Shown: positions 5,715 to 50,040 of the stretch, one piece after another
How the letters are laid out: the number at the start of each line of letters is the position of its first letter
Numbering within the stretch: the stretch's first letter is position 1
NCBI GenBank assembly: GCA_963826785.1
Contig: CAWGYD010000004.1
Location: 192,001-256,000 of the forward strand
Reading direction: 5' to 3'
From: an uncultured delta proteobacterium
GTDB taxonomy: Bacteria; Desulfobacterota; Desulfobacteria; Desulfobacterales; Desulfosalsimonadaceae
Length of the DNA stretch: 64,000 bases
Made by a program: the position numbers and the translations under genes
Notes under the pieces: model-generated
Database searches by the model: none
The model's input: only the letters and a program-made list of their open reading frames with translations
Told to the model about the DNA's origin: nothing

Positions 5715-5754
5715 TTGACAAGCAGCGGCAGTCCGGGTTAATGGTAGTACCAAT
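5715..5754 (+). promoter_or_regulatory. Promoter with FadR/PdhR-type operator upstream of the GntR operon
   Basis: TTGACA at 5715-5720, then ATGGT-AGT-ACCAAT (TGGT-N3-ACCA, 5742-5752); weaker second copy AAGT-AGG-ACCAT at about 5883-5894. Confidence 0.6.
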
Positions 5755-5904
5755 GCACATGCTGGATTAAAAATCGTAACCGAATCTTTAATTAAACTTA
5801 TCTGAATTAATGGCTAAATTTAATTAAAGGGGTTCCGGCTAAAATTTTAAACATCGATAATCAAGCTGTTTTTATCAGGTTAAAGTAGGACCATTTGAAC
5901 CGAA

Positions 5905-6693
5905 ATGACGGGTACCATGAATTATAAAGATACCATTTTCAGTCCCGCCCAGGTCGGCAGGGCCGGCGAAGATATCGCGCTGCAGATCGAGGCGGCCATT
6001 ATCGGCGGAAAGATTGATCCCGGAGAACGCCTGCCCAGTGAGCGGGATCTGCAGGTGCAGTTTCACACGTGCCGGGGCGTGATCCGGGAAGCCCTGGGCG
6101 CATTGAAACAAAAGGGCCTGATCGAGATCAAAAAGGGCGCCAAGGGCGGGGCGTTCGTCAAAGAGGTGGAAATGAGACTGGTCAGCGAATCGCTTGCCCT
6201 GTTTTTAAAACAGCGGCAGGTGGACCCGGCCTATCTCATCGAGTTTCGCGAAAGCCTCGACCGGACCATCACGACCCTGGCGATCGCCCGGGGAACGCTT
6301 GCGGAAAAAGAACAGCTGGTGGCCGGCGCAGAGTGTCTGCTCAAGGAACTCAAAAAGATCGAACCGGACATGGAATCGGTGTTTGAGATCGACCGGAACC
6401 TGAACCTGCTTCTGGCGCAAATGACGAAAAACCCGCTGTTCGACTGGATCATGCGGGCCATACAGTCGGGATTGAGCTCCTATGACCACCCCTTGTATAC
6501 CCATCCGGATTATCGGGAACGAACCGCGATCAACTGGCTGGAAACGGCCCGGGGAATCGCTCAAAACGAGCCGCTGCGCGCCCTTTCGGTTATCGGGTAT
6601 CATTATGTCATGCTGCGCGATTGTCTGGCAGCGCAATCGGCGCACCAGGATCAAACCGACGAATTTGCAGTAAATCATACGGAAACACAGTGA
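5905..6693 (+). CDS. GntR-family (FadR subfamily) transcriptional regulator
   Basis: wHTH PGERLPSERDLQVQFHTCRGVIREAL...GAKGGAFV, followed by an FCD-like C-terminal domain. Confidence 0.88.
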   Translation: MTGTMNYKDTIFSPAQVGRAGEDIALQIEAAIIGGKIDPGERLPSERDLQVQFHTCRGVIREALGALKQKGLIEIKKGAKGGAFVKEVEMRLVSESLALFLKQRQVDPAYLIEFRESLDRTITTLAIARGTLAEKEQLVAGAECLLKELKKIEPDMESVFEIDRNLNLLLAQMTKNPLFDWIMRAIQSGLSSYDHPLYTHPDYRERTAINWLETARGIAQNEPLRALSVIGYHYVMLRDCLAAQSAHQDQTDEFAVNHTETQ

Positions 6694-6756
6694 TGCGGGC
6701 GCGCCCGGCGAACGGGATCAAAAACGCGCCTGCGCATCCGAAGGAAGTATCGATAC

Positions 6757-7476
6757 ATGTTACAGGCATCTCATCTCACTAAAAAATTCGGGGAACTGGT
6801 TGCGGTAAATGATCTGAGCTTCCGCGTGGAAACGGGTCAGGTGTATGGCATTGCCGGCCCCAATGGGGCTGGGAAATCAACGGTCTACAACCTGATCACC
6901 GGAAATTACGCGTTTGAGGGGGATATCACGTTTAACGGAACGAGCATTTCCGGGATGCCCCCCCACAAGATCGCCCAGCTGGGCATTTCACGCACCTTCC
7001 AGATTCCCCAGACCTTTCCCAGCCTCACGGTGGAGCAGACCCTGGGCGTGGGATCCCGCTTTGGTGACGATCAGGGCTATGACGCCGGGTTTGTGGATGA
7101 AATCCTGGCGTTTCTGGACCTGGAGGAAGACCGCCACCGGATGACCGGCGATCTCAATCTTCTGGGCAAGAAAAAACTCATGATCGGCGCGGCACTGGCC
7201 ACCCGCCCGAAAATACTGCTGCTCGACGAGCCCATGGCCGGCTCCAATGCCCATGAAATCCGGGCACTCATGGACCTGATCCGGCGCATCAACGAAGACA
7301 TGGGGGTTACCATCATCATCATCGAACATTTCATGAAAGTGCTCACCGAACTCACCGAAAGGCTGCTCATCATCGAAGCCGGCACCCAGGTTGCGGAAGG
7401 CGACCCGGACGAGGTGACCAGTGATCCCGAGGTGATCGAATGCTATCTGGGCGATGCGTATGCTGACGGCAACTGA
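6757..7476 (+). CDS. LIV-type ABC transporter ATP-binding protein (LivG-like)
   Basis: GPNGAGKST, ISRTFQ, LLLDEP, IIIEH, V..CYLG C-terminus. Confidence 0.9.
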   Translation: MLQASHLTKKFGELVAVNDLSFRVETGQVYGIAGPNGAGKSTVYNLITGNYAFEGDITFNGTSISGMPPHKIAQLGISRTFQIPQTFPSLTVEQTLGVGSRFGDDQGYDAGFVDEILAFLDLEEDRHRMTGDLNLLGKKKLMIGAALATRPKILLLDEPMAGSNAHEIRALMDLIRRINEDMGVTIIIIEHFMKVLTELTERLLIIEAGTQVAEGDPDEVTSDPEVIECYLGDAYADGN

Positions 7477-8164
7477 TGTAAATGCCTACTACGGCCAGTT
7501 CCATGTGCTGCACGGGGTTTCGTGCAGGGTGCGCAAGGGCGAAGTGGTGGTCATGCTGGGCCCCAACGGCCACGGCAAGAGCACGCTTTTAAAATCCATC
7601 TGCGGTCTGGTGGACCGGGTGGAAGGCACCATCACCTATAAAGGAGACAATATTTCCGGGCTGTCTGCGGAAAAGCTGGTCAACCGGGGGGTGATCTATA
7701 TCGCGGAAAACCGGGAACTGTTCGGCGACATGACGGTGCTGGAGAATCTGAAACTGGGGGCGTACTCCCCCAACGCGCGCCCGGCGGAAAAGAAAAACCT
7801 GGCCCAGGTGTTTGACCTTTTTCCCCGCCTGGCCGAACGGAAAAAGCAGATCGCCTCCACCATGAGCGGCGGGGAAGCCCGCATGCTGGCCATCGCCAGG
7901 GGGCTGATGTCCAATGCGGATTTTTTGTGCATCGACGAACCTTCCCTGGGCCTGCAGCCGAACCTTCGAGTGGAAGTCTTCAATATCATAAAGGAAATAA
8001 ACCGGCAGGGTAAATCCATCCTGCTGGTGGAACAGAACATTCCCCAGATTGCCGAACTGGCGGACCGGATTTATGTGCTGGAAGAAGGGTGCATCACCTT
8101 CGAGGGGGATGCCGAAGCCGCCGCCCGGGATGATCACCTGAAAGAAATTTTTTTGGGAATGTAA
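7454..8164 (+). CDS. LIV-type ABC transporter ATP-binding protein (LivF-like)
   Basis: GPNGHGKST, LFPRLAERKKQIASTMSGGE, DEPSLGL, LLVEQN. Confidence 0.9.
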   Translation: MRMLTATDVNAYYGQFHVLHGVSCRVRKGEVVVMLGPNGHGKSTLLKSICGLVDRVEGTITYKGDNISGLSAEKLVNRGVIYIAENRELFGDMTVLENLKLGAYSPNARPAEKKNLAQVFDLFPRLAERKKQIASTMSGGEARMLAIARGLMSNADFLCIDEPSLGLQPNLRVEVFNIIKEINRQGKSILLVEQNIPQIAELADRIYVLEEGCITFEGDAEAAARDDHLKEIFLGM

Positions 8165-8180
8165 TCGGAAGAAAAGAAAC

Positions 8181-9056
8181 ATGCTCCTTGAATATCTGGA
8201 TGTCTTTATCAGCGGCCTGACCAACGGTTCCGTATATGCGCTCATGGCCGTCGGCCTGACGCTGGTGTACGGTGTGAGCCGGGCGTTTAACTTCGCCTAC
8301 GGTTCGTTTTTCAGTCTGGGCGGTTATGTCGCCTGGGTTTTCATGATGTATCTGGGTGTGCGGGGCGGTTACATCATGGTCTTTTTCCTGTCCATACCGC
8401 TTCTGATGGTCTTCGGGTATTTCACCGAAAAGCTGATCGTCGCCCCTTTGCGAAAACGCTCGGACTGGGAAGTCAAGGTCATGATGATCACCCTGGGACT
8501 GGCGCTGTTTATGGACAATGGCTTCCAGGTCCTTTTCGGCCCGCGCATGAAGTCGCTTCCGCCCATCATGGAAGGCGCCATCCAGGCGGGGGATGTTTTC
8601 ATCTCCAACCAGGACCTGATGATTTTTATCCTGTCGATTTCAGGCATCCTCGCTTTCCGCTGGCTGCTCAACAACACCCGCATCGGCATGGCGGTCCGTG
8701 CCGTGGCCCAGAATCCGGCGGGTGCGCAGATTGTCGGAATTCCCAAAGACAAGATTTTCGCGGCCACTTTTGCCATATCCACGGTCATGGTGGGCACGGG
8801 GGGCATCCTGCTGGCGCAGAAATATTTTGTTTCTCCCACCGGCGGCTGGGACATCCTGGTCAAATCATGGGTGATCACGGCATTCGGCGGCATGGGCTCA
8901 ATCCGCGGAGGCCTGTATGCGGCCTTTATCCTGGGGATGCTCGAAGCGTTTGTGGGCTACTGGTTCGGCCTGAACTGGGTCCTTTTTGCCCTGTTCGCCG
9001 TGCTGCTCACCACCCTGGCCATCCGGCCACAGGGGCTCATGGGAAAGTGGGGCTGA
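8181..9056 (+). CDS. LIV-type ABC permease (LivH-like)
   Basis: GSVYALMAVGLTLVYGV..FNFA, T..G.A.RAVAQN, GGMGS..G motifs. Confidence 0.9.
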   Translation: MLLEYLDVFISGLTNGSVYALMAVGLTLVYGVSRAFNFAYGSFFSLGGYVAWVFMMYLGVRGGYIMVFFLSIPLLMVFGYFTEKLIVAPLRKRSDWEVKVMMITLGLALFMDNGFQVLFGPRMKSLPPIMEGAIQAGDVFISNQDLMIFILSISGILAFRWLLNNTRIGMAVRAVAQNPAGAQIVGIPKDKIFAATFAISTVMVGTGGILLAQKYFVSPTGGWDILVKSWVITAFGGMGSIRGGLYAAFILGMLEAFVGYWFGLNWVLFALFAVLLTTLAIRPQGLMGKWG

Positions 9057-9180
9057 TGGCGAAGTTAAAAGGACCATCTACGGCGTTGCAGCCATTTTTC
9101 ATCCGCTCAACATACGCGGTGTATGCCCTCGCGGATGAAAAATGGCGCGTCTTGTATATGGGCCTTTTAACTTCGCCATC
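9055..9180. repeat. 126-bp palindromic MITE/REP-like element
   Basis: Perfect 18-bp terminal inverted repeats GATGGCGAAGTTAAAAGG/CCTTTTAACTTCGCCATC, inner perfect 16-bp IR GCCATTTTTCATCCGC/GCGGATGAAAAATGGC, central CATAC/GTATG. Confidence 0.85.
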
Positions 9181-9216
9181 CCATTAATCCCCTAATGGTT
9201 AGGAAGTAAGAACCTT

Positions 9217-10212
9217 ATGACTATGAATTTCAAACGCATGAGTGCGTTTATCGCGCTGATCTATGGCGGCATGGCGCTCATGCCGCTGTTTGTGGGCGGC
9301 GTGGATCATCTGATGCATATCCTCATCATGTGCCTGATCTGGGCAGTGGTGGCCTCGTGCTGGGACCTCATCATGGGGTTTGCCGGAATTTTTTCCTTCG
9401 GGCAGGTGGCTTTTTTCGTCATCGGCGCCTATGCCTCGGCCATCCTTTCCATCCAGTTTCATATCCATCCGCTGTTGGCCATGCTCCTGGCCGGAGTGGT
9501 GGCCGCAGCCTTCGGCGTGCTGGTGGGCCTGCCCTGCCTGCGGCTCAAGGGGGCGTATGTCGCGCTGGTGACCTTTGCCGTGCACATGATCCTGGAGCCT
9601 TTTCTGAAAAGCAGCATGGGCCGAGCCATCGGTACCGGCGGCTCCCGGGGGATACTGACCATCCCGCCGCTGGAACTTTTCGGCATCTCCTTCAACACGG
9701 ACCACAAGGTGGCCGTATTCTATGCGGCCCTGGTGCTGGCCGTGGCCTGCTCGATCATCATCATGCTGGTGATCCGATCCTTCTGGGGAAAGGCATTTCT
9801 GGCGCTCAAGGATTCTCAGGAATTTGCCGCCAGCCTGGGCGTCAGCGCGTTTCGGTACAAACTGGCCGTATTCGCCCTCACCAGTTTCCTCACCGGCGTG
9901 GTCGGCGGGTTTTATGGACATTACGTGGGCATGCTCTCCACGCGCATGCTCGGGATCGACCTTTTTGTCACGCTCATGATCATGCTGGTTCTGGGCGGCA
10001 TCGGCCAGTTTCCCGGCGCCATTCTCGGTGCCATCATGACCGTGGCCATCAATGAAAATCTTGCACCCCTCGGATCGTACCGTCCCCTGATACTGGGGGC
10101 CCTGGTGGTGGTGCTGGTGCTTCTGCTCCCCGACGGCATCATTGGCCTGCTGCGCAGGCTTACCCCGGGAAAGACCCCTGTCGCAATTGAATCGACGGCT
10201 TCCGGGGGCTGA
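9217..10212 (+). CDS. LIV-type ABC permease (LivM-like)
   Basis: WDLIMGFAGIFSFGQVAFF, LRLKGAYVALVT, A.SLGV...YKL, VLGGIG, LPDGI motifs. Confidence 0.9.
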   Translation: MTMNFKRMSAFIALIYGGMALMPLFVGGVDHLMHILIMCLIWAVVASCWDLIMGFAGIFSFGQVAFFVIGAYASAILSIQFHIHPLLAMLLAGVVAAAFGVLVGLPCLRLKGAYVALVTFAVHMILEPFLKSSMGRAIGTGGSRGILTIPPLELFGISFNTDHKVAVFYAALVLAVACSIIIMLVIRSFWGKAFLALKDSQEFAASLGVSAFRYKLAVFALTSFLTGVVGGFYGHYVGMLSTRMLGIDLFVTLMIMLVLGGIGQFPGAILGAIMTVAINENLAPLGSYRPLILGALVVVLVLLLPDGIIGLLRRLTPGKTPVAIESTASGG

Positions 10213-10280
10213 ATAAATCGCTGAAAGAAGACGGCAGAAACCGGATACCGTAAACATTCATTTAATAAATGGAGGAAAAA

Positions 10281-11502
10281 GTGAAGAGAACTGGTTTTGT
10301 AATTCTGGTAATTACGGCAATTTTGACCTTTACCGGTACGGCGCTGGCCGCCGATGTGATCAAGGTCGGCGTCCCTCAGGCCATGACCGGCCCTTATACC
10401 GACACGGGCGACAACTACTGGAAGGGGATCAAGATGGCCATCGACGAGATCAATGAAGCACGGCGGCCTTCTGGGCAAAACCCTCGTACCCGTTCGTTTC
10501 GACACCCAGGAATTTGCCCCGGAACGGGTCATGGAGGGTGCCGATTATCTGTGCGGACAGGAAAAAGTGGATTCCGTACACGCCGGCTGGGCCGGCTGGG
10601 GGCAGGATGTGCGCGCATACGGCAAATATAGTGCGCCATTCTTTGCGGACGATGGCTCCCAGTCCGCCGTGGACGTGTTCAACCAGGACCGGGAAAAGTA
10701 CGGAAATATCTTCCAGCTGACCGATACCGACGTCAACCAGGCCACGAGCATGTTCAACGTGCTGATGGCGCTGCCCTATGAATATCCCAACAAGAAGGTG
10801 GTCATCATCAACGCCGACGATGCCTGGGGCATGGGCGTGGGCGACACCCTGGAAGACAATTTCAAGAAAAAGGGGTGGGAAGTGGCCATGCACGAAGTGG
10901 TGCCCTATGGCACCCGGGAATGGGGACCGATCCTCACCCGTATCCGCAGACTCAAGCCCGCCATCATCCACGTGGAAATCGTAAGCGCCCAGGAAGTCAT
11001 CACCTTCTTCCGCCAGTTCATGAAGGCGCCCACCAATTCCATCCTGAGCTACGGCTACTCCATTGTCCCGCGTGAGGTGGTGCAGACCATGGGCAAAGAA
11101 GCCGACGGCCTGATCGGTGAAGTCCCCACGGCCATGCCCACGCCCACGGCGCCCACGCCGGAAGCCCAGGCCTGGGTGGACAAGTTCAAGAAGCAGTGGG
11201 GGCATCAGCCCCAGGCCGGTTCCTGGGCCGCGTACAGCGGCGTAAAAGCCTGGGCCGCGGCCGTTGATGCCGTGGGCAACGAAAAAGACCACAAAGCCGT
11301 CTGCGACTATATCGCCTCCAAGGGATACAAAGGCGAGACCGGCTGGTGGAAATGGGATGAAGACCATGTCATGCGCGGCGGCGGGGATGTGCCCTTCGGC
11401 CATTACCAGGTTCAGGACGGCGAGATGGTGACCATCTTCACCGATCCACCGGCAAAACCGTATCTTGATTTCAAATTCATCACCCCACGCTGGATTAAAT
11501 AA
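10281..11502 (+). CDS. LIV-type ABC substrate-binding protein (LivK-like), one-base frameshift near 10460
   Basis: GGAGG RBS + GTG 10281, signal peptide, IKVGVPQAMTGPY...AIDEINE continuing as GGLLGK in the next frame (ORF 10453-11502). Confidence 0.82.
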
Positions 11503-11509
11503 TTCATGA

Positions 11510-11551
11510 CCACTTCGCCGTGCGGGGGTGAATCCCCGCACGGCGAAGTGG
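11510..11551. repeat. Perfect 18-bp hairpin after the binding-protein gene
   Basis: CCACTTCGCCGTGCGGGG-gtgaat-CCCCGCACGGCGAAGTGG, no U-tract. Confidence 0.8.
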
Positions 11552-11583
11552 CCGTCATCCAGCAATTGGATTTTTCCAAAGTT

Positions 11584-11685
11584 CGTCACCCCGGCGCAGG
11601 CCGGGGTCCAGAAACAATCTAAAAAATTGGATTTCCCTGCTCCGGAATGACGGGTAGGAAGTCCCGATTTTTTTTTACGAATCCA
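11584..11685. repeat. REP/MITE-like repeat
   Basis: CGTCACCCCGGCGCAGGCCGGGGTCCAG ... TGGATT...GGAATGACG ... TTTTTACGAATCCAT. Confidence 0.6.
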
Positions 11686-11713
11686 TAATGATAAAACCCG
11701 TAAAGTTTCTGCT

Positions 11714-12169
11714 TTGAACCGTTTTTCGCAAAAATTATATATCAAAACCAGTTTTGACCGGTGCACGGGATGTGATCTGTGCCGGCTGGCGTGCTCCGAG
11801 CACCTGCTGGGCGGCTACAATCCGCATCGGGCCCTTCTGCACATCCGCCACGCGTGTGAAAACCTATATCATTTTCCCACCGTGTGCAATCAGTGCGAAA
11901 ATGCCTATTGCGCCAAGGTCTGCCCGGTCAACGCCATCGAACGGAACCCGGCCACCGGCGCCCTGGTGGTGGATTCCGGCAAATGCGTCGGGTGCAATCT
12001 CTGCCATCGCTACTGCCCGCTTCACGTGGTGGGCGTGGACCCGGAGCTGAAAAAATCGGTCAAGTGCGACCTGTGCGCGGGCGAGCCCGCCTGCGTGGCC
12101 GCCTGCCCCACCGGCGCCCTGGAACTGGCCGGGTGCGAAGAACGCGCCGAAGCAGGGGAGGGGGCCTGA
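11714..12169 (+). CDS. 4Fe-4S dicluster protein (DmsB/CooF-like electron-transfer subunit)
   Basis: CTGCDLCRLAC, CNQCENAYCAKVCP, CVGCNLCHRYCP, KCDLCAGEPACVAACP; stop overlaps AOR start (TGATG); start codon uncertain. Confidence 0.88.
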   Translation: MNRFSQKLYIKTSFDRCTGCDLCRLACSEHLLGGYNPHRALLHIRHACENLYHFPTVCNQCENAYCAKVCPVNAIERNPATGALVVDSGKCVGCNLCHRYCPLHVVGVDPELKKSVKCDLCAGEPACVAACPTGALELAGCEERAEAGEGA

Positions 12170-13998
12170 TGGCAACCAGCTACATGGGAAAACTGCTGTG
12201 GGTGGATTTGAGCGGCCGGAATTTCCGGGTGACGGAAACGCCGGAACGGCTGCAGTCCGATTTTGTGGGCGGCAAGGGTTTCGGGGCAAAACTGCTCCAT
12301 GACCTGACCGCCGCGGGACTCGACCCCTTTTCGCCCCAATGCCCCCTGATGTTTCTGACCGGCCCGCTGACTGCAACGGCCGCGCCGGCCATGCGGGCCT
12401 GCGTGGTGACAAAGTCTCCGCTCACGGGAACATTCCTCGATTCGTATTTCGGCGGGCGCTTCGGGCCGGAGATCAAGTACGCCGGGTATGACGGCATCAT
12501 CATCACGGGCCGGGCCGAAAAACCGGTTTACCTGTGGATCAGCGATGAGGCAGTGCAGTTTCGCTCCGCAGAAGGCATCTGGGGGGAGGATGCGCTGGCC
12601 GCAAATGAGCGCATTAAAAAAGACCTGGATGAACCGGAGGCCATGGTCGTGACCATCGGCCAGGGCGGTGAAAACCGGGTTCCCTTTGCGCTCATCAGCT
12701 GCGAATACAACCGGCAGGCCGGCCGGGGCGGCGCCGGTGCGGTCATGGGGGCCAAAAACCTGAAAGGCATCGCCGTAAAAGGTTCCGGCCTGGTGAAGGT
12801 CCATGACCTGTCCGCCTTTCAAAAAGCCTGTTGCCAGGCCCATGCGGCAATTGCCGAAAGCGAAGTCTGCAAGACGCTCACCTATGGCGGCACCAGCACC
12901 AGCGTGGCGTGGGCGTCGGAGGCGGGAGTGCTTCCGCACCGGAATTATGCCGAGCAGGTGGATGCCCGGGCCGGCAGGCTCGGCGACGAAGGCCAGTACA
13001 AGCACCTGTTTCTGGGCAAGGCCGCCTGTTTCGGTTGCCCCATCCGCTGCAGCCAGATGGGCGCGGTGCGCACGGGAAAATACGCGCATTTCATCACCGA
13101 CATCGTGGAATACGAATCCGCCGCGCTGATGGGGTCAAACCTGGACATTCACGATATCCGCGCGGTGGCGCACCTGGTGAAATTGTGCGACCGGTACGGA
13201 ATCGATTCCATGAGCGCCGGCGGGGTGATCGGCTTTGCCTTCGAAGCCGCCCGGAATGGCGCCATTCAGGAGCCTGATGGAATAAAACTCGATTTCGGAA
13301 GCGTGGAAGGCGCGCAATATCTCATCTCCGCCATGGCCCTGCAGGAAGACGAACTGGGGCGCCTTCTCTCCCAGGGCGTGAAACGCGCCAGCGAGATCCT
13401 GGGCGGCAATACGGATGCGTATGCCCAACACGTCAAGGGGCTTGAAAGTCCGGCCTGGGGGCCGCGCGGCACACCGGGCATGGGGCTTGCCTACATGACC
13501 GCCGACCGGGGCGGCTGCCACCAGCGGGGATTTATGATCGGCTATGAAGTGGGCGGCGAAACCTACAACGGACGGCCCGTTCAAGCCCACACCCTTTCGG
13601 GCAAAGCGGAGATATTAAAGGACCGGCAGGATTACCTGTCCGGAACCGATGCGCTGGTCAAGTGCGATTTTGCCGCCTTCGGGATATCGCCGCAGGTTTA
13701 TGCCGACCTGTTCACCGCCGCCACCGGAAGACCCGTGGGACCCGGATTTTTCAATGAACTGGGAGAACGCATCTGGAACCAGACCCGGCTGTTCAACCTG
13801 CGGGAAGGTTTCAGTCAAAAAGATGACCGCCTGCCGCGGCGGTTTGTCGAAGAGGCGCTTTCCAGCGGGCCACACAAGGGACAGCGCATCAGTGAAGAAG
13901 ACATGGACTTCATGCGCAACGATTATTACCGCGTGCGAGGCTGGGACGAACAGGGGCGCCCCACGGGGCAGACCCTCGATAGACTGGGGCTGGTGTAA
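12169..13998 (+). CDS. Aldehyde:ferredoxin oxidoreductase family protein (W/Mo-pterin)
   Basis: GGKGFG, KSPLTG, GRGGAGAVMGAKNLK, CFGCPIRC, EYES, LCDRYGIDSMS, RGGCH, YYRVRGWD; start at MATSYMGK (12169). Confidence 0.9.
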   Translation: MATSYMGKLLWVDLSGRNFRVTETPERLQSDFVGGKGFGAKLLHDLTAAGLDPFSPQCPLMFLTGPLTATAAPAMRACVVTKSPLTGTFLDSYFGGRFGPEIKYAGYDGIIITGRAEKPVYLWISDEAVQFRSAEGIWGEDALAANERIKKDLDEPEAMVVTIGQGGENRVPFALISCEYNRQAGRGGAGAVMGAKNLKGIAVKGSGLVKVHDLSAFQKACCQAHAAIAESEVCKTLTYGGTSTSVAWASEAGVLPHRNYAEQVDARAGRLGDEGQYKHLFLGKAACFGCPIRCSQMGAVRTGKYAHFITDIVEYESAALMGSNLDIHDIRAVAHLVKLCDRYGIDSMSAGGVIGFAFEAARNGAIQEPDGIKLDFGSVEGAQYLISAMALQEDELGRLLSQGVKRASEILGGNTDAYAQHVKGLESPAWGPRGTPGMGLAYMTADRGGCHQRGFMIGYEVGGETYNGRPVQAHTLSGKAEILKDRQDYLSGTDALVKCDFAAFGISPQVYADLFTAATGRPVGPGFFNELGERIWNQTRLFNLREGFSQKDDRLPRRFVEEALSSGPHKGQRISEEDMDFMRNDYYRVRGWDEQGRPTGQTLDRLGLV

Positions 13999-14139
13999 TG
14001 TCCCGTCAAAAAGCGTTCTCGGCCGGGTTGTATCGTTACAACACGGTTGAATTTAGAAATTTGAATACAGATACCATGCCGTTTTCTTCTCCTGATATTT
14101 CGGATGAAGGGCAGGCGCATGGAACAGCAAGGAGTCAGC

Positions 14140-15798
14140 ATGAAAAAACACTATGACTATATCATCGTCGGCGGGGGGTCTGCCGGGAGCGTTCTGGCAA
14201 ATCGCCTGAGCACGAACCCGAAAAACCGGGTGCTGGTGCTGGAGGCCGGTCTGCCGGATTACAAATGGGATTTTCGCATCCACATGCCGGCCGCACTCAC
14301 CTATCCCCTGGCCAGCCGCATGTACAACTGGTGGTACGAATCCGAACCCGAGCCCTTCATGCACAACCGCCGGGTATACCAGCCGCGCGGAAAAGTCCTG
14401 GGGGGATCGAGCTGCATCAACGGCATGATCTACATTCGCGGAAACGCCCAGGATTATGAAAAGTGGGCCAAAGAGCCGGGTTTGGGAAAATGGGATTATG
14501 CCCACAACCTGCCCTATTTTCAGCGGTTTGAAGGCCGTCTCCAGGGCGCGGACGAATACCACGGTTCGGTGGGACCCCTTTATCTGACCACCCCGGAGTG
14601 CGCAAACCCCCTGTTTGACGCCTTTTTCCAAGCCGTGCAGGAGGCGGGATACCCGCTCACCACGGATGTGAACGGGTACCGGCAGGAGGGTTTCGGATCC
14701 TTTGACCGCACCTGCTACCGGGGCCGCCGCTGGAACGCGGCCCGGGCGTACATCCACCCGGTCAAAAACCGTTCCAACCTCACCGTCCTCTGCCGGGCCC
14801 ACACCACCCGCATCCTTTTTTCCGGGAAAAGGGCGGTGGGTGTGGAATATGTACGGGGCAAAAAGACCATCCAGGCTTCGGGCGGCGAGATCATCTGCTG
14901 CGGCGGGGCCATCAATTCGCCCTCGCTGCTCCAGCTTTCCGGCGTGGGTAATGCAGCCGAACTCGATGGGCTCAACATCCCCGTGGTGCAGGACCTTCCC
15001 GGTGTGGGCGAAAATCTGCAGGACCACCTGGAAGTCTATGTGCAGTATGCCTGCAAAAAGCCGGTCAGCCTCTATCCGGCCCTCAAAGCCTGGCGGCAGC
15101 CCTTTATCGGGGCACAGTGGCTGTTCAAGCGAAAGGGCGTCGGCGCCAGCAACCATTTCGAGGCGGGCGGTTTCATCCGGTCCAACGACACCCTGGAATA
15201 TCCCAACCTGCAGTATCATTTCCTGCCCATTGCCATCCGCTATGACGGTTCCGTGGCCCAGGGCGGCCACGGCTATCAGGTTCACGTGGGCCCCATGAAT
15301 ACGGACGTGCGCGGAAGCGTCAAAATCACCGGCGCAGACCCTTTTGTCTATCCCAAGGTGAAATTCAACTACCTGTCCACCGAACAGGAGCGCCGGGACT
15401 GGGTGGACGCCATCCGGGTCACCCGAAAGATCATGACCCAGCCGGCCTTCGACGAACTCCGGGGGGCGGAGCTCGCCCCGGGCGAGGCGGCCCAGACGGA
15501 CGAGCAAATTCTGGATTTCGTGGGGCGCGAAGGGGAATCCGCCTATCATCCCAGCTGCACCTGCAAAATGGGAACCGACGACATGGCGGTGGTGGACCCT
15601 CAGCTCAAGGTCCGCGGCGTCGAGAACCTGCGCGTGGTGGACGCCTCGGTCATGCCGTACATCACCAACGGCAATATTTATGCACCGGTGATGATGATTG
15701 CGGAAAAGGCGGCGGACATGATCCTGGGAAACACGCCCCTGGCGCCGTCTCAGGCACCCTTTTACACGGACGAAAAAAAGGCCGATTCATCGGTTTAA
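14140..15798 (+). CDS. betA: Choline dehydrogenase (GMC oxidoreductase)
   Basis: YDYIIVGGGSAG, DFRIHMPAAL.YPL, RGKVLGGSSCINGMIYIRG, GYRQEGFG, GASNHFEAGGFIRS, QYHFLPIAI.YDG, SAYHPSCTCKMG: motifs of the BetA clade; AGGAG RBS. Confidence 0.88.
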   Translation: MKKHYDYIIVGGGSAGSVLANRLSTNPKNRVLVLEAGLPDYKWDFRIHMPAALTYPLASRMYNWWYESEPEPFMHNRRVYQPRGKVLGGSSCINGMIYIRGNAQDYEKWAKEPGLGKWDYAHNLPYFQRFEGRLQGADEYHGSVGPLYLTTPECANPLFDAFFQAVQEAGYPLTTDVNGYRQEGFGSFDRTCYRGRRWNAARAYIHPVKNRSNLTVLCRAHTTRILFSGKRAVGVEYVRGKKTIQASGGEIICCGGAINSPSLLQLSGVGNAAELDGLNIPVVQDLPGVGENLQDHLEVYVQYACKKPVSLYPALKAWRQPFIGAQWLFKRKGVGASNHFEAGGFIRSNDTLEYPNLQYHFLPIAIRYDGSVAQGGHGYQVHVGPMNTDVRGSVKITGADPFVYPKVKFNYLSTEQERRDWVDAIRVTRKIMTQPAFDELRGAELAPGEAAQTDEQILDFVGREGESAYHPSCTCKMGTDDMAVVDPQLKVRGVENLRVVDASVMPYITNGNIYAPVMMIAEKAADMILGNTPLAPSQAPFYTDEKKADSSV

Positions 15799-15843
15799 TC
15801 CATATATTTTTCTAAAACCATTCAACATGATCAGGAGGAGAAG

Positions 15844-16602
15844 ATGAAGAAAAAGATGATGGGAGTTTTGTTGCTGGTACTGCTGGGCGCCGCCGGCACG
15901 GCATTTGCCGGGGAAGGCCCCTTTGCCGCGGACAATTTCAGCGCCACGATGTATCTGACCACGGACTATGTTTCCCGGGGGATATCCTTTTCAGGAGAGG
16001 ACCCGGCCATTCAGGGGACGTTCGATTATGCCAACCCCAACGGCATTTTTGCCGGCATCTGGGCCAGCAGCTGGGACAGCGGGGAAACCTCCAATAACAT
16101 CGAGACCGGCTACTATGCCGGGTATGCGGGAGCGCTGGGAAATGCCGGATACAGCCTTTCGGCCAACTACTACGTCTATCCCGGTGCCGATGATGATGCA
16201 GCGGAATGGGATTACTGGGAATTTGCCGCATCGGCCAATTACACCTTCGATCAGGCGCCCCTGACCCCCGTGGCCGGTGTCGGATATGTCTATTCACCCG
16301 ACTGGTTCGGGGAAGACGGGGATCTCAACTATGTCAATTCAACCCTTGATCTGGCGCTGCCCATGAATCTGGGCCTGGGATTCGAAGTGGGATATTTCGA
16401 TCTCCAGGGCGACAAAACCACTCCGGTGGGATTCGGTCTTGACGGCGGCAGCGGATATGATTACGTCCACTGGAGAGTCGGTCTGTCCACGACCCTGGTG
16501 GGATTCGGCCTTGACCTGAGCTATCATGACACCACCGAGGAGGATTTCTTCGGAGATCTCGGCGGCTCAAGAGTCGTTTTTACCCTGTCGCGCAGCATTT
16601 AA
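15844..16602 (+). CDS. TorF-like putative outer-membrane porin
   Basis: Signal peptide, TTDYVSRGIS...PAIQG.FDY...GIWAS motif, Tyr/Gly-rich beta strands, C-terminal VVFTLSRSI. Confidence 0.75.
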   Translation: MKKKMMGVLLLVLLGAAGTAFAGEGPFAADNFSATMYLTTDYVSRGISFSGEDPAIQGTFDYANPNGIFAGIWASSWDSGETSNNIETGYYAGYAGALGNAGYSLSANYYVYPGADDDAAEWDYWEFAASANYTFDQAPLTPVAGVGYVYSPDWFGEDGDLNYVNSTLDLALPMNLGLGFEVGYFDLQGDKTTPVGFGLDGGSGYDYVHWRVGLSTTLVGFGLDLSYHDTTEEDFFGDLGGSRVVFTLSRSI

Positions 16603-16636
16603 AAATTTAAAAAGATCAGGGTATCTGAAATACGAT

Positions 16637-16680
16637 GCGCCATCTTCGGCTTTGTCAGCCGGGGATGGCGCTTTTTATTT
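16637..16680 (+). terminator. Intrinsic terminator ending the GntR-ABC-AOR-betA-porin operon
   Basis: GCGCCATCTTCGGCT-loop-AGCCGGGGATGGCGC followed by TTTTTATTT. Confidence 0.75.
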
Positions 16681-26172: not shown

Positions 26173-27495
26173 TTATGGACGGGCACGACGGATCTGGTAG
26201 TCATCCTCCACCCGGTCCTGCAGGACGATGTGGTCGTATTCTTCCGGGTCGGCGGCGTTGAACCAGGAAAAACCCTGGTCCTGGCAGGCGGCGCAAGCCT
26301 TGCGGGGGATGTGGACGGCCAGGATGCGCTGCCCGTTGTCGCAGCTGGAATCAATTTTCAAGACGCCGCTGCAGTCATTGCAGATGCGCAGGGATTCGTA
26401 CTGGGTTTCGGACAGGCCGTCGGTGTCGTAGAAAATGCTTCTGCGCCGGTCGGCGAATTTCTTGGTCCCCCGCATGTGTTCCCGGATGTGTTGCTGCTGG
26501 CGCCAATTGTTGAGCACGGTCTCGCCGGTTCTTTCGATCACCTGGGTGATCTGGCCGGTCTGGCGCAGTTTTTCATGATCGTAGCCCGGTTCCTTCACCT
26601 TGGAGTAGTCGACCCCGGCCATGGCCAGGATGATCCCCACGTTCACGTAGGGAAGCGCCCCTTCGATGGAATAACCTCCTTCCAGCACGGCGATGTCCGG
26701 CTTGAGCAGGCGGGTCAGGTCCGCATACCCCTGGGCGGAAAACTGCATGTTGGTCAGCGGGTCGGTGAAATGGTTGTCCTGGCCGGCGGAATTGATGATC
26801 AGATCGGGCTTGAACTCATCCAAAATGGGCAGGACCACATGTTCGATGACGTACAGGAATCCTTCCTCGGAAGTATGCGGCGGCAGGGGAATGTTTAAGG
26901 TTGTGCCGGCGGCAGACGGCCCCCCCAGTTCTTCGGTAAAGCCGGTTCCCGGATACAGGGTACGGCCGTCCTGGTGGATGGACACATAGAGGGTGTCCGG
27001 GTCATGCCAGTAGATGTCCTGGGTGCCGTCCCCATGGTGGCAGTCGGTATCGATGATGGCCACCCGGTCGATGCCGTACTGCTTTCGGAGAAATTCCACC
27101 ATGATGGCTTCGTTGTTGACGTTGCAGAACCCTCTGCCGCCGTGCACCACCCGCATGGCGTGGTGGCCCGGGGGCCGGACCAGGGCGAATCCCCGCTCGA
27201 TCTGTTTTTCCATGACCGCCCGGGCGATGGTCTTTGCCCCGCCCGCACTGATGAAATGCGATTCGGTCATCACGCTTTTGGCATCCGGCACGCAGAAATG
27301 GACCCGCTGGACATCTGCGATCTCCACCACCTCGGCCTTGTATTCCGTGATGCCGTCGATATCGAACAATCCCTCTTCCAGGACCTGGTCCTGGGTATAC
27401 AGCAGCCGCTCCTCTCTTTCCGGATGCGTGGGGCTGATGGCCCAGTCGAATGCCGGAAAGAAAATCAGGCCGGTTTTATGTCTGGCGTACAGCAT
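26173..27495 (-). CDS. Histone deacetylase-family protein with C-terminal Cys-rich extension
   Basis: HPE.EERL, RPPGHHA, GFC, DTDCHHGDGTQ, SIHQ, YPGTG, SAGQD, LEGGY; C-terminal CNDC/CAAC. Confidence 0.9.
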   Translation of the reverse strand: MLYARHKTGLIFFPAFDWAISPTHPEREERLLYTQDQVLEEGLFDIDGITEYKAEVVEIADVQRVHFCVPDAKSVMTESHFISAGGAKTIARAVMEKQIERGFALVRPPGHHAMRVVHGGRGFCNVNNEAIMVEFLRKQYGIDRVAIIDTDCHHGDGTQDIYWHDPDTLYVSIHQDGRTLYPGTGFTEELGGPSAAGTTLNIPLPPHTSEEGFLYVIEHVVLPILDEFKPDLIINSAGQDNHFTDPLTNMQFSAQGYADLTRLLKPDIAVLEGGYSIEGALPYVNVGIILAMAGVDYSKVKEPGYDHEKLRQTGQITQVIERTGETVLNNWRQQQHIREHMRGTKKFADRRRSIFYDTDGLSETQYESLRICNDCSGVLKIDSSCDNGQRILAVHIPRKACAACQDQGFSWFNAADPEEYDHIVLQDRVEDDYQIRRARP

Positions 27496-27541
27496 GAAAA
27501 GCTCTCCCGAATTGTGGGTCGCTGAAAAAATTTTTGATTAT

Positions 27542-29239
27542 TTAAGTCGGCGCCGTTTCCTGCCGCAGGCGGTTGGTGACCGTCTGGGAGCGATGAATCA
27601 GGCCCGGCTTGACCTGGAGTTTGATCCGGATATTTTTTCCCGTCAGCCGGAATCCGCGCACCATGTTGAATTCCAGTTCTTCCAGGACTTCAATTTCCAG
27701 GTCTTTGGCATCCGCGCCCGTTTTCATGGCCTTTTCCATGAGGAGGCGGCGCGCCATCTCCATTGCGTCTTTCCGGGTGAACCCGGATTTGACGGGTTCA
27801 GAAAAATCTTCCTCCGGTGCGAGGGCCACCCCTTTCTGTGTATTGACAAAAAGCGTCACCTCGCAGGTGGTGCGCGCCAGGGCGGTGCCGATGGCATTTG
27901 CCACCGACCACGCGGGGATGACGGAGACCGAATAGTCGGAGACATGCCGGAGGTGTTCGGCAAAAAAGGGTGCCGGCCCCCCCAGCACCAGGATTTTCTT
28001 CGGGTGGACCTGGTGCCCGTGCAGCGCCTCGCGTATGGTATACACCGGCTTGTTGTTGATCTGGGCCACCATATCATCGGCAGATCTCAAAATTTCCCGG
28101 CAGGCCTGGTCGAAAATTTTTTCGGCGGCTTCCTCTACTGTAATATGGAGCATTTCAGCGATGGGGGCAATCCCGGCGAGCGCGTTTTCCCGGCTGCCGC
28201 CCTCGCCCTTGCCCAGCACGAACAGCGCATCCGTGGGCGTGGGCAGTGAGCCGCCATAGGCCATGGCAGGCCCTGTCCGTTCGGGGCCGATCATGATCCG
28301 GCCGTCTTCCAGGCGGACGGTGCTGTCGCCCCCGATGGGAATGGAATAGGTATTCAACGCGCGGATCAGGGTCTTGTATCCGCCCAGTTCGATGCCCATG
28401 GGTGAAAGGAGCGGGACGCCCCGGATGAGCACGGCCATGTCGGTGGTGGTGCCGCCGATGTCCATGACAATGGTTTCCGCATCCGGGTCGGCAAAGGCTA
28501 TGGATCCCATGACAGAAGCCGACGGTCCCGAGAGGATGGATTGACCGGGAAAATCGATGGAGGTATCGAAATCCATGGTGCCGCCGTCGGCTTTCAGGAT
28601 ATAGATGGGGATGGTAATCCCTTTTTGGACCAAAGAAGACTTGACCGCTTCGAAGAATTTTTTGTGCACCGGGTACACCGATGCGTTCAAGAACGTCGTG
28701 TGAATCCGCCGGGGGAAGCTGAGCTGGCCGGAAATCCGGTGGCCGTAGAAAATTTTGTCCACGTACGGCTTTAAGATCTCTCCAATCTGCTGTTCGTGGG
28801 CGGGGTTCCGGGCGGAAAATTTTCCCACCACCCCCACCTGGGAAATGCCGGCGTCCTTGAAACGGAGGGCGATTTGCCGGATTTCATCTTCGTCGACGGC
28901 TTCGATTTCTCTGCCCCCGTGATCGATGGAGCCGGCCACGGGATAATAATCGGGGTTGGTGCGGAATGCCTCCGGGTCGATCCCGGGGCCGCTCGATACA
29001 ATCATGCCCACGGGGGGAAGTTTGTGCTGGGCAATGGCATTGGTGGTCAGGGTCGTGCTGAGGACCGCATGCCGGATTTGGGTGGGCGCAATCCCCGCGG
29101 TGATTTTTTCCAGTCCGGTCAGGACCGTCTGAAAAAGCGCCGAGGTGTCGGTGAGGACTTTCACCTGCCGTTCAAGACCGTTTCGTCCCACCAGGACGAC
29201 ATCCGTGTGCGTGCCGCCGACGTCCAGTCCGATGATCAT
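27542..29239 (-). CDS. Hydantoinase/oxoprolinase (HyuA-like) family protein
   Basis: IGLDVGGTHTD, STTLTTNA, SILSGPSAS, DIGGTTTD, IGGDS, PTPTDA, VANAIG. Confidence 0.9.
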   Translation of the reverse strand: MIIGLDVGGTHTDVVLVGRNGLERQVKVLTDTSALFQTVLTGLEKITAGIAPTQIRHAVLSTTLTTNAIAQHKLPPVGMIVSSGPGIDPEAFRTNPDYYPVAGSIDHGGREIEAVDEDEIRQIALRFKDAGISQVGVVGKFSARNPAHEQQIGEILKPYVDKIFYGHRISGQLSFPRRIHTTFLNASVYPVHKKFFEAVKSSLVQKGITIPIYILKADGGTMDFDTSIDFPGQSILSGPSASVMGSIAFADPDAETIVMDIGGTTTDMAVLIRGVPLLSPMGIELGGYKTLIRALNTYSIPIGGDSTVRLEDGRIMIGPERTGPAMAYGGSLPTPTDALFVLGKGEGGSRENALAGIAPIAEMLHITVEEAAEKIFDQACREILRSADDMVAQINNKPVYTIREALHGHQVHPKKILVLGGPAPFFAEHLRHVSDYSVSVIPAWSVANAIGTALARTTCEVTLFVNTQKGVALAPEEDFSEPVKSGFTRKDAMEMARRLLMEKAMKTGADAKDLEIEVLEELEFNMVRGFRLTGKNIRIKLQVKPGLIHRSQTVTNRLRQETAPT

Positions 29240-47401: not shown

Positions 47402-49825
47402 ATGATGAAAAATTTTATTTTCACCATAGCAGCAATCCTTCTATTCGCCGGGTGTGTCCATGCAGGATCCAGGGAGACTGACCTGACGGTAACACCCGAT
47501 CCCGTGTCCGTGGGCCAGCAGGTCCATTTCACCTGTAATTCCAACGGAGGCTGGAAAAAGGGCCAGTTCGAAACGGCTCAGATCACCATCCGGGATGCAG
47601 CCAATCGCATCATTGTCAACAGGGCCGATATGGCGGTAAGCGGTACATCCGCATCATATGATTTAACCCTCGATTCCGGCGCCGTTACCGGCACCTGGCA
47701 GTTTCAGTGCTTTCTCAGTGACGGCCCCCATTCGCAAACCCGGTCCGGTTCTTTTACGGTCGTGGCGTCCGAGGACCCGGTCAACCACGCGCCGTCGGTC
47801 GATGCAGGCGGGCCGTACAACGGCACACCGGGCCAGGCGGTCAGCTTCGACGGTTCGGGCAGCAGTGATCCGGACGGTGATGCATTGACCTATCACTGGA
47901 CCTTCGGTGACGGGGGATCGGCAAACGGTCCCACTCCCAGCCATGCGTATGCGGCGGCCGGAACCTACGCCGTGACCTTGAGTGTCAGTGACGGGAAGGG
48001 CGGCACGGATTCCAGCCAGACCCGTGCGGACATTGCCGCCATTGCCGTCAACCATCTGCCGGTGGCCGTTTCCGGCGGTCCCTACAGCGGCATGGAGAAT
48101 CTCGCCATTCAATTCGATGGCTCCTTTTCGAGTGATCCGGACGGCGATCCGATGACCTTTGCCTGGGATTTCGGCGACGGGGGATCGGCAAACGGCCCCA
48201 CTCCCAGCCATACATACGCCGCACCCGGGACCTACACGGTCATCCTGACCGTCAACGACGGGAAAGGGGGGACGGATTCCCATCAGACGAGTGCCGCCAT
48301 AACTGCCTCGGGCGGGGATGACGGCCTGGCCGCGCATCTGTCCATTCAGGCGTACAACGGACCGTCCACCTGCATCACCTGCCACCCCGCCGAAGCGCAG
48401 GAAATGCTCGACAGCCTGCACATGCAGTGGGCCGGTCCCACCCCCGAGCTTTCCAACACCAATGGCGGGGAAAAAGGCAAGGGCGTGGACGGCATCAACA
48501 CCTTCTGCACCTATGCCATGTCGTCCAAGAGCGCCTGCTTCACCTGCCATGTCCGCTCCGACGGCAATGCTTCCCATGCCCCGGATGTAAATGATGTGGA
48601 CTGCCTGATGTGCCACAATGACACCTACCAGCGAAAATTCGTGCTCGATCCCATGAATTCGGAAACCGTGGTCAACGTGCTCGGCGAAACCAAGACCTAC
48701 ATGTTCGGCAAAGTCGATTCATATGGGGACTACCTGACCGAACCCGACTTTTCCGCCATGCCGGCGGGGACCACCATGGTGGGTCTTGCCCAAAACGTCC
48801 ACCTGCCCACCCGGCAGTCCTGCCTTCGCTGCCATGCCAAGGCCGGCGGCGGGGACTGGACCAAGCGGGGCGACATGGGGGTCAATTCCGCCAGCCCGAC
48901 CCTGGCCCAGGATGTGCACATGAGTCCGGCCGGGGCGAACCTGTCCTGCGCGGACTGCCATTCCGCCGGCAATCACAAGATCGGCGGCCGGGGGATCGAT
49001 CTTCGGGAAACCGAGGCCCCGGACCCGGCGTGCAGCAACTGCCATTCCTCATCCCCCCATTCCAGTTCCACCTTGAACCGCCATGCCAGCGGCCAGGTGG
49101 CCTGCCAGGTGTGCCACATCCTCGAGTTCGCGAAGGGCGGCGCCACCGAGATGTCCCGGGACTTCCGGGAACCGCACTGGAATGCCGGTTTTTGCAATGG
49201 CCAGGGTGGGTTTGTGGGCCATGAGATCAAATCCGGAAATGAAAAGCCGGATTACCGGTGGTTTGACGGCACCTCCTATGTGTACAACGTGGGGGACGCC
49301 ATTTCACCCAATGCAGACGGCACCTACACCATGGCCAGGGCCAACGGAAAGATATTTGACGGCAATTCCAAAATCGTCCCCATCAAGGACCACTGGTCCG
49401 TGATGCCGCTGAGCGATTCGGGCAAGATCGTTGCGCCGAAAATCATGACCATGTTCATGACGGGCGACTACGACAAGGCGGTACAGGACGGTATGAAGGA
49501 GCAGAACATGACGGGCGGCTACACCATGGTCCATGCCGATGCCGAAATGCTGATCACCCACGGTGTTGAACCCAAATCGAACGCCCCGTCGTGCAGCACC
49601 TGCCATGACAACACCGGAAATTCCAACCGGATGATCCCGTTTGGCGATCTGGGTTATCACAACGTGCCGGATGCGGTCCAAAACTGCACCCGGTGCCATG
49701 AACGGCACGATGGCAGCTGGCAGTCCGTGCATGACCGGCATGTGGGGTCCATGCATCTGGATTGCACCTACTGCCACATCGATCCCGCCACCGGCACCGT
49801 CAAGCCGGCCATCCATGACGACTGA
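47402..49825 (+). CDS. Decaheme c-type cytochrome: OTR (octaheme tetrathionate reductase)-family core with N-terminal Ig-like and two PKD domains
   Basis: Ten CxxCH (CITCH, CFTCH, CLMCH, CLRCH, CADCH, CSNCH, CQVCH, CSTCH, CTRCH, CTYCH); INTFC, GGGD..KRGD, DVHM, VACQ.CHI, P.YRWF.G, HGV.PK motifs; FDGS.SSDPDGD...W.FGDG PKD repeats; signal peptide with LLFAGC. Confidence 0.85.
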   Translation: MMKNFIFTIAAILLFAGCVHAGSRETDLTVTPDPVSVGQQVHFTCNSNGGWKKGQFETAQITIRDAANRIIVNRADMAVSGTSASYDLTLDSGAVTGTWQFQCFLSDGPHSQTRSGSFTVVASEDPVNHAPSVDAGGPYNGTPGQAVSFDGSGSSDPDGDALTYHWTFGDGGSANGPTPSHAYAAAGTYAVTLSVSDGKGGTDSSQTRADIAAIAVNHLPVAVSGGPYSGMENLAIQFDGSFSSDPDGDPMTFAWDFGDGGSANGPTPSHTYAAPGTYTVILTVNDGKGGTDSHQTSAAITASGGDDGLAAHLSIQAYNGPSTCITCHPAEAQEMLDSLHMQWAGPTPELSNTNGGEKGKGVDGINTFCTYAMSSKSACFTCHVRSDGNASHAPDVNDVDCLMCHNDTYQRKFVLDPMNSETVVNVLGETKTYMFGKVDSYGDYLTEPDFSAMPAGTTMVGLAQNVHLPTRQSCLRCHAKAGGGDWTKRGDMGVNSASPTLAQDVHMSPAGANLSCADCHSAGNHKIGGRGIDLRETEAPDPACSNCHSSSPHSSSTLNRHASGQVACQVCHILEFAKGGATEMSRDFREPHWNAGFCNGQGGFVGHEIKSGNEKPDYRWFDGTSYVYNVGDAISPNADGTYTMARANGKIFDGNSKIVPIKDHWSVMPLSDSGKIVAPKIMTMFMTGDYDKAVQDGMKEQNMTGGYTMVHADAEMLITHGVEPKSNAPSCSTCHDNTGNSNRMIPFGDLGYHNVPDAVQNCTRCHERHDGSWQSVHDRHVGSMHLDCTYCHIDPATGTVKPAIHDD
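47780..48300 (+). repeat. Tandem 267-bp PKD-domain duplication
   Basis: Near-identical blocks, e.g. TTCGG(T/C)GACGGGGGATCGGCAAACGG(T/C)CCCACTCCCAGCCAT; units start at 47780 and 48047. Confidence 0.8.
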
Positions 49826-49856
49826 TCCGGTGTAGCAAACCACCGGAAGAAAAAAT

Positions 49857-49896
49857 GCAAAACAGGATGCTTCCGCAAGGAGGCATCCTGTTTTGC
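49857..49896 (+). terminator. Terminator hairpin after the cytochrome
   Basis: GCAAAACAGGATGCTTCC-GCAA-GGAGGCATCCTGTTTTGC. Confidence 0.75.
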
Positions 49897-50040
49897 GTGG
49901 TAACGCCTGATTCCGGCACTGAAATACATTATTCCCATTTGCCAAATGCGGGATTTCCCGTATTTGCGCTTCAAGGAAAGCAAGCTATTGTTTCTCGGAT
50001 AAATCTTAAAAATATCGAAATGTTGTCAAAAGGAGCGGCA

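Follow-up and report, generated by a model that had tools for sequence, protein, structure and literature searches.

A candidate choline-to-betaine operon of an uncultured Desulfosalsimonadaceae bacterium in which a tungsten-type aldehyde oxidoreductase probably stands in for BetB

The window analyzed here is a 64,000-nucleotide stretch of contig CAWGYD010000004.1 from an uncultured delta proteobacterium (assembly GCA_963826785.1), and between its positions 5715 and 16680 our profile and domain scans recovered ten co-directional genes on the plus strand, flanked by a DEAD-box helicase gene and mutL on the opposite strand. In order, they encode a GntR/FadR-family regulator (5905..6693; PF00392 for the GntR domain and PF07729 for the FCD domain), five components of a leucine/isoleucine/valine (LIV)-type ABC importer, a small protein with four [4Fe-4S] clusters, an enzyme of the aldehyde:ferredoxin oxidoreductase (AOR) family, a BetA-type choline dehydrogenase and a putative porin. 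Taken together with the comparisons across relatives described below, this arrangement makes it probable that the AOR-family enzyme and its Fe-S partner (designated WorL and WorS after the tungsten-containing oxidoreductase, or WOR, family) complete the conversion of choline to glycine betaine in the place of BetB, with betaine aldehyde as the likely substrate.

The three genes at the center of this reading lie side by side. The WorS-type subunit (11714..12169; PF13247) shows four Cys motifs, and the TGA of its gene overlaps the ATG of the AOR gene (12169..13998) as TGATG, in line with the translational coupling proposed in the preliminary description of this DNA. The catalytic subunit matches PF02730 (AFOR_N) and PF01314 (AFOR_C), and its structural model superposes on 1aor, 1b25, 9mqx, 8c0z and 9g7j with TM scores of 0.91-0.93 at 31-37% sequence identity. 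The GMC-type flavoprotein that follows (14140..15798) exceeds the TIGR01810 equivalog cutoff (833.6 versus 732.1 bits), which places it in the BetA clade as originally suggested; its open frame begins at 14104, and the best ribosome site lies before 14140. It is 56% identical to Escherichia coli BetA, with matching His and Asn motifs, and the Glu of its DHLE motif aligns with Glu312 (DHPE312) of choline oxidase 2jbv, presumably a cation-binding residue. No second copy of a BetA-type gene was found in the genome.

Relatives of the window AOR share 54-85% identity inside a clade of 30 loci, the next ones being at most 50% identical, and this clade received an SH-aLRT value of 100 in a tree of 59 rows (the 30 clade loci and the 7 sister sequences in full, with 22 drawn from 58 outgroup sequences; quick trees were used throughout). 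On this sequence evidence, the enzyme is a member of a discrete, uncharacterized WOR-family clade. The operon holds no FAD/NAD subunit, only WorL and a four-cluster WorS, and in the accessible parts of PMC13328260 class II WORs are defined by just these two subunits, without a WorN, WorABC or Tat signal context; by gene content, the pair fits that class. Ferredoxin is the predicted acceptor, given the class II assignment and the lack of an NAD subunit in the operon, and electrons from betaine aldehyde would thus likely pass to it.

The linkage of betA to this AOR, whose loss in relatives would by the preliminary description have told against the reading, is conserved: betA adjoins the AOR gene in 13 of 14 genome loci, the contig of the 14th ending inside the AOR gene, and in 22 of the 30 clade rows of the AOR tree, while it was found beside none of the out-of-clade AORs at 80 loci, many of them short. 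For the distribution of the enzymes we used 301 genomes of the same order, counting BetA at 63% identity or more (two GMC matches at 42-44% were left out) and a BetB where its identity to one from a cassette reached 67%; by these thresholds 16 genomes have BetB and 21 have the AOR clade. BetA is present in 19 of the 21 carriers of the AOR clade versus 16 of the other 280 genomes. Among the resulting 35 BetA genomes, 16 have the AOR only, 13 BetB only, three both and three neither, a near-exclusivity with a Fisher p of 1.5e-4 that is overstated by kinship (11 AOR versus 5 BetB families). The AOR-only genomes comprise 14 in which the AOR and betA are physically linked, one in which the locus is broken by contig ends and one in which they are unlinked; in the three genomes with both enzymes, betA accompanies betB, and the AOR is basal and unlinked. 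Eight further AOR-type genomes yielded no BetB of the cassette type (best 46%), and none of the candidates rescored in five AOR-negative BetA genomes fell in the clade.

The two enzymes also occupy the same regulatory setting. BetB-type cassettes run GntR-betA-betB-choX, and their BetB was best matched by TIGR01804 in all six tested, four of them over cutoff, and two same-family genomes show an intermediate order, GntR-betA-choX-FeS-AOR. This near-exclusive distribution within one regulatory cassette, together with a genome in which we found no betB, supports the earlier proposal that the AOR and its Fe-S subunit act in BetB's role. The accompanying phrase, a pathway redesigned for an anaerobe, went too far, as other genomes of this sulfate-reducer order run NAD-dependent BetB in the same cassette. 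In the BetA tree, BetB-linked forms are nested among AOR-linked ones, and a single AOR/BetB split was rejected (approximately unbiased (AU) test p 0.017, on 39 rows after removal of the unlabelled ones); the direction of the exchange is tentative because the root sits on the long E. coli branch.

Orthologues of the window regulator at 53-75% identity head both AOR-type and BetB-type cassettes, those of the BetB type being at 53-65%. A FadR-type palindromic operator with a TGGT-N3-ACCA core (5740..5754) overlaps the -10 box of the candidate promoter, and a weaker second palindrome of this type lies at 5879-5897. Using a pattern derived from the window's own site, we found that the core precedes the GntR gene in 29 of 32 cassettes (AOR-type, 14 of 15; others, 15 of 17) versus 8% of shuffles, and a genome-wide scan returned no convincing additional regulon members. 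The GntR protein would repress the promoter from the operator over the -10 box until released by choline or a derivative, and the operon is likely choline-responsive.

Members of the same AOR clade also occur beside a second, unrelated choline enzyme. In metagenome locus L083, the FeS-AOR pair is followed by a GbsB-type choline dehydrogenase (NF053866, 591.8 bits versus a cutoff of 550), and in Natranaerobius thermophilus (L246:12001-16249, NZ_CP144220.1) an AOR bearing the Trp and Asp motifs described below is followed by an unannotated GbsB-like alcohol dehydrogenase, 68% identical to the L083 GbsB over 289 residues, and then by OpuAC, in a record with many frameshifts and a partial second copy. 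In locus L075, a choline binding protein scoring over cutoff precedes the FeS-AOR pair. We regard these contexts as the strongest argument for betaine aldehyde as the substrate, because BetA and GbsB have unrelated folds and betaine aldehyde as their shared product. GbsB was also considered as the partner of the unlinked clade AORs and set aside, with none over cutoff in the five genomes.

All 30 clade members keep the [4Fe-4S] ligands C287, C290, C294 and C499 and the second-shell residues T242, E316 and H451 (Thr243, Glu313 and His448 in the reference). The residue after the fourth Cys, D500, is Asp in all 30 and Asp or Glu in all seven sister rows; it aligns with Leu495 of AOR and with Arg492 of FOR, which we take to be the binder of glutarate's far carboxylate, and an Asp here would suit a cationic aldehyde. 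Trp paired with Asp or Glu at the W430 and D500 positions occurs in the top five representatives and one of 145 others. The accessible text of PMC12096430 makes no mention of Arg492.

Elsewhere in the genome, we found at least six further AOR paralogues; two AOR genes other than that of the window are in pieces. A protein with a TupA-type motif and a permease lie at C8:253032 and bear on the choice between tungsten and molybdenum as the metal. Viral contigs yielded no relative. The sister-clade AORs, 43-45% identical (L094:4683-9866, L096:3169-8070, L090:7606-11642 and L088:3611-9818), have as neighbors MttB with a corrinoid protein (MttB in L094 and L096), an iron alcohol dehydrogenase, or an amino acid permease together with a class III aminotransferase. 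The distant AOR P0331 is fused to a class III aminotransferase and has Asp after the fourth Cys, and the distant AORs P0262 and P0317 are fused to HUMPS/OMP-decarboxylase-family domains.

The importer shows the complete five-gene LIV architecture: LivG-type (6757..7476) and LivF-type (7454..8164) ATPases identified by profile and domain matches, LivH-type (8181..9056) and LivM-type (9217..10212) permeases (both PF02653), and a periplasmic binding protein of the type I fold (10281..11502; PF13458) whose gene is frame-split and which is a predicted choline binder. Every subunit scores under the LivG/F/H/M/J and Urt equivalog cutoffs. The best fold match of the binding protein is 3h5l (TM 0.79, 22% identity), and six of its residues (numbered as in P0121, a relative whose gene is intact), W103, W106, D123, D124, W182 and W315, are the same in all 50 homologues compared. 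Loose pairwise alignments with LIV binding proteins put Trp106 opposite Ser79, Tyr/Trp259 opposite Asp/Glu226 and Trp182 opposite Tyr150; Ser79 and Asp/Glu226, which we take to be the amino-acid-binding positions, are by these same loose alignments not kept in the window protein. It is reasonably likely that the LIV-type importer carries choline, and together with the porin it could scavenge choline through a Trp/Asp pocket.

That porin, a TorF/Gcw_chp-type protein (15844..16602; TIGR02001 at 129.6 bits, cutoff 47.15), is accessory, with matches among the loci examined in the window and four others only, some of these loci being represented more than once. The transporter differs among AOR loci (LIV, Opp-type, choline ABC or none), as do gene order and orientation. 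At L072:6602-17388 (genome G194) and L085:112-6708, a LIV importer is divergent from FeS-AOR-betA, with a TetR gene between AOR and betA in G194, and at G320:C14 (L073) a clade AOR occurs with an Opp-type importer and no betA. Cassettes with betA and neither BetB nor clade AOR lie at L212:9154-15479 (G109) and L202:5637-9118 (G300), and in G109 a LIV importer directly precedes betA with no AOR.

The genome (4.4 Mb, 87.8% complete) has its nearest named loci in Desulfobacterales, Desulfatitalea and Desulfatibacillum among them, and we take certain of its ORF starts to be those of DsrB and AprA. Searches of the whole genome gave no betB, betI or betT outside the window either. No BetB was found to account for the second step (the two full aldehyde dehydrogenases score 323 and 181 on TIGR01804, cutoff 668.6), no BCCT/BetT carrier was found, and an E. 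coli BetI query gave no match. CutC over cutoff was likewise not found at this completeness (best 455.8 versus 1050), nor was GbsB (best 275 bits versus 550); one ProX-type importer is present. Roughly one conserved gene in ten is frame-split in this assembly, and the absence of a gene from it should be read with caution.

As described at the outset, the TTGACA box, the terminator and the ten co-directional genes are all where they were reported. A candidate sigma-70 promoter on the plus strand (5715..5742; TTGACA at 5715-5720, 16 nucleotides, GTTAAT), its function judged from sequence, was not listed by a consensus promoter scanner, and promoter-like sites showed no enrichment in the region (7 found versus 6.3 expected). 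An intrinsic terminator (plus strand, 16637..16680) of 15 pairs (16637-16671) and a T tail, at -29 kcal/mol, was the strongest of the region by scanner. Folding also placed an 18-bp hairpin (11510..11551, plus strand) 3′ of the binding-protein gene; next, still ahead of the Fe-S gene, come a REP-like repeat (11560-11660) with 28 blastn matches across the genome and a weak U-tailed hairpin (11651-11674). These elements may stabilize the mRNA or cause partial termination. The gap between importer and Fe-S gene is 7-15 bp in several relatives, where 36-60 bp often separate the AOR gene from betA. With the hairpins and the repeat lying between the importer and the Fe-S gene here, co-transcription of all ten genes is likely rather than certain. 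The operon's GC and GC3 are ordinary for the window, and a horizontal-island reading was rejected on these grounds.

While the original gene list was complete, it overlooked a frameshift: one extra base at about 10460-10462 (+1), relative to four relatives, splits the binding-protein gene in this assembly. This base is probably an assembly error. Frame-splits affect 8 of 78 conserved proteins taken from two same-family genomes (about 1 in 10), so one break among ten operon genes is expected, with a reverse control (7 of 197) that is not clean, some flags being the genome's own out-of-frame ORFs; a small share of one DNA read run held no read bridging the site. Beyond the operon, the window encodes an 807-aa protein that combines PKD repeats with a Cytochrome_cB domain and precedes an aldo/keto reductase (47402-51006). 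On the minus strand, a histone-deacetylase-family gene adjoins one for a hydantoinase/oxoprolinase (26176-29239).

In the pathway that we favor, BetA would oxidize imported choline to betaine aldehyde, passing electrons to the quinone pool; WorL would then oxidize the aldehyde to glycine betaine, holding its trimethylammonium group by W430 and D500, and WorS would hand the electrons to ferredoxin. A number of observations weigh against it. We know of no LIV-fold protein that binds choline, none of the fold matches listed for the binding protein was choline-bound or a close relative, and the importer is frameshifted in this assembly. BetA's closest solved relative, 9lq0, is titled oxygen-dependent. 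Five basal clade members are unlinked to betA (three in genomes with betA and betB, two in genomes without betA, one of which is G320, 96% complete), and one genome, G060, has AOR and betA on different contigs. In G109 (99% complete) and G300 (98%), betA occurs in the absence of both BetB and a clade AOR, which may mean that BetA by itself, or a general enzyme, is enough. D500, tried as a unique marker of the clade, was rejected when taken alone, being present in 18 of 140 distant AOR representatives. The position of the reference Tyr427 (W430 in the window AOR) is Trp in 27 of 30 clade members and Phe in three, and the part of PMC12096430 available to us connects a Tyr-to-Trp change in WOR4 with its inactivity toward aldehydes, in an enzyme that has also lost a Cys; that Cys is retained in this clade. 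Since it lacks Tyr427, we do not file the enzyme as AOR sensu stricto, and its predicted function is AOR-like.

The alternative that survives best accepts the same chemistry and differs solely in the fate of the betaine: choline would be an electron donor for sulfate reduction, and corrinoid methyltransferases would pass the methyl groups of the resulting betaine to the Wood-Ljungdahl pathway, so that no trimethylamine is made by CutC. The genome could carry this out, as C1:81961-92260 (L238:7962-18261), at 82-91 kb, is a candidate quaternary-amine demethylation cluster: it encodes a corrinoid protein and two MttB homologues, of which one is frame-split, with a hydantoinase-like protein, a RACo activator and a pterin-binding methyltransferase. 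Catabolism is further favored by the high-affinity importer and porin, by the MttB neighbors of sister-clade AORs in L094 and L096, and by the scarcity of CutC, over cutoff in one of 42 genomes examined, a BetB-type one. Against it, MttB homologues show no enrichment (12 of 21 AOR-type versus 6 of 13 BetB-only genomes) and are missing from each of the three g18-genus genomes that are 100% complete, no operator near the MttB cluster was among the top genome-wide matches, and no methyltransferase appeared among 89 scanned neighbors of in-clade and BetA loci. Thus the earlier suggestion of an alternative to CutC cleavage stands insofar as CutC was not found, and falls short in the catabolism that it implied, nine of 21 AOR-type genomes having no MttB-family demethylase. 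For this last reason osmolyte synthesis is likelier than catabolism; we lean slightly toward betaine being kept mainly as an osmolyte, with recovery of the electrons, and being demethylated in the subset of genomes that have MttB systems, an option open to this one, and consider a chiefly catabolic role rather unlikely. MttB itself, tried as a marker of catabolic use, did not differ between cassette types and was discarded. G320 has 15 MttB homologues, and near one of them (G320:C3:59352-66583) is a glycyl radical enzyme with 694 bits on the CutC model, under cutoff.

BetA-type proteins are reported to oxidize betaine aldehyde in vitro, and BetA might perform both oxidations in the operon, leaving the AOR dispensable, as a scavenger for betaine aldehyde that escapes or for other aldehydes. 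The persistence of betA without either partner in G109 and G300 agrees with this, as does the statement in the accessible parts of PMC13328260 that characterized AORs are mostly broad detoxifiers (in 5 of 92 WOR clades a member has a defined physiological role). However, a generic scavenger would not track the absence of BetB (the 16/13/3/3 division above), nor would one be expected to fill the BetB slot under the same operator and also to follow the unrelated GbsB, and at least six other AOR paralogues are already present in the genome; we therefore judge this alternative improbable. A shade less probable still is an operon for another alcohol/aldehyde pair, such as homocholine, a sulfonium alcohol or dimethylethanolamine, set by the LIV-type importer. 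The binding protein has no characterized relative (22% identity to 3h5l), transporter type varies between loci, and class III aminotransferases adjoin a sister-clade AOR and are fused to a distant one with Asp at the D500 position, but in these cassettes BetA, BetB, GbsB and the choline binding protein each reach curated cutoffs that are specific for choline or betaine. Finally, an AOR that is dead or, like WOR4, does not oxidize aldehydes, in an operon decaying in this genome, would explain the Tyr427-to-Trp change and the broken binding-protein gene, but is very improbable given the invariant four Cys, Thr, Glu and His in all 30 members, unlike WOR4 with its lost Cys, and the one break per ten genes expected from the assembly.

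If WorLS does replace BetB as proposed, one uncharacterized WOR clade, with named cultured hosts in Desulfatibacillum alkenivorans DSM 16219, Desulfatitalea alkaliphila M08but and Natranaerobius thermophilus, gains a specific, purchasable substrate, and the case bears on whether aldehyde oxidation needs Tyr427. It would also explain genomes annotated with betA without betB and add an anoxic choline sink that yields no trimethylamine, and the binding protein is indicated as a candidate LIV-fold choline binder. A further-reaching version, which we put forward tentatively as somewhat less likely to be right than wrong, makes the whole clade a betaine-aldehyde:ferredoxin oxidoreductase specialized for this task, in which Trp and Asp form a pocket for the cation. 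It would be supplied by the first choline importer known with a LIV fold and would give strict anaerobes both an osmolyte and reduced ferredoxin. It would divert sediment choline from trimethylamine and methane and would have been BetA's original partner in the order, swapped with BetB at least twice, and GbsB-linked versions could run from betaine to choline.

A full-text literature search, which reached few subscription papers and for most matches covered the listing and the start of the abstract, turned up no account of a pathway that combines an AOR with betA or gbsB, and the accessible parts of PMC6295475, PMC6207618, PMC12388727 and PMC8359318 do not mention one. The words choline and betaine are absent from the main text and three supplements of PMC13328260, whose clade Table_1 lay outside the search and may classify these sequences. 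The overall pathway is known; the enzyme swap, the regulator and the importer are apparently undescribed.

Compared with E. coli betIBA-betT, the window operon has a BetA orthologue, the same predicted overall reaction, and repressor, importer and oxidation genes together, but its genome yielded no BetB, BetI or BCCT carrier, with a FadR-type regulator, a LIV-type importer and a porin instead, and its second step is predicted to use a tungsten-pterin, ferredoxin-linked enzyme in contrast to NAD-dependent BetB. Bacillus subtilis gbsAB pairs the iron alcohol dehydrogenase GbsB with the aldehyde dehydrogenase GbsA; the same AOR clade adjoins GbsB in L083 and a GbsB-like protein in N. thermophilus, where the AOR would take GbsA's place, whereas the window uses BetA and its genome has no GbsB over cutoff. 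For strict anaerobes, osmoprotection has been proposed for betA-betB of Desulfohalobium retbaense (Dret_0130/0129) and strain L21-Syr-AB (PMC3035252, PMC6491731), where the enzyme is NAD-dependent and the accessible text leaves an AOR in this role unmentioned. Among class II WORs, Pyrococcus furiosus WOR5, also called ASOR, and Caldicellulosiruptor bescii GOR have the same architecture of a large subunit and a 4x[4Fe-4S] small subunit with no NAD subunit, according to the accessible parts of PMC13328260, and ASOR oxidizes betaine aldehyde as its second step, according to those of PMC12096430; yet the window AOR scores 243 bits to WOR5 versus 374 to P. furiosus AOR, keeps a Thr absent in ASOR, has Trp at the Tyr427 position and sits in a choline cassette. 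With P. furiosus AOR and FOR and the A. aromaticum and A. mobile AORs, it shares the fold (TM 0.91-0.93), the Fe-S ligands and the Thr, Glu and His residues, but at 31-37% identity it belongs to a separate clade, with Asp in place of Leu495 of AOR and Arg492 of FOR.

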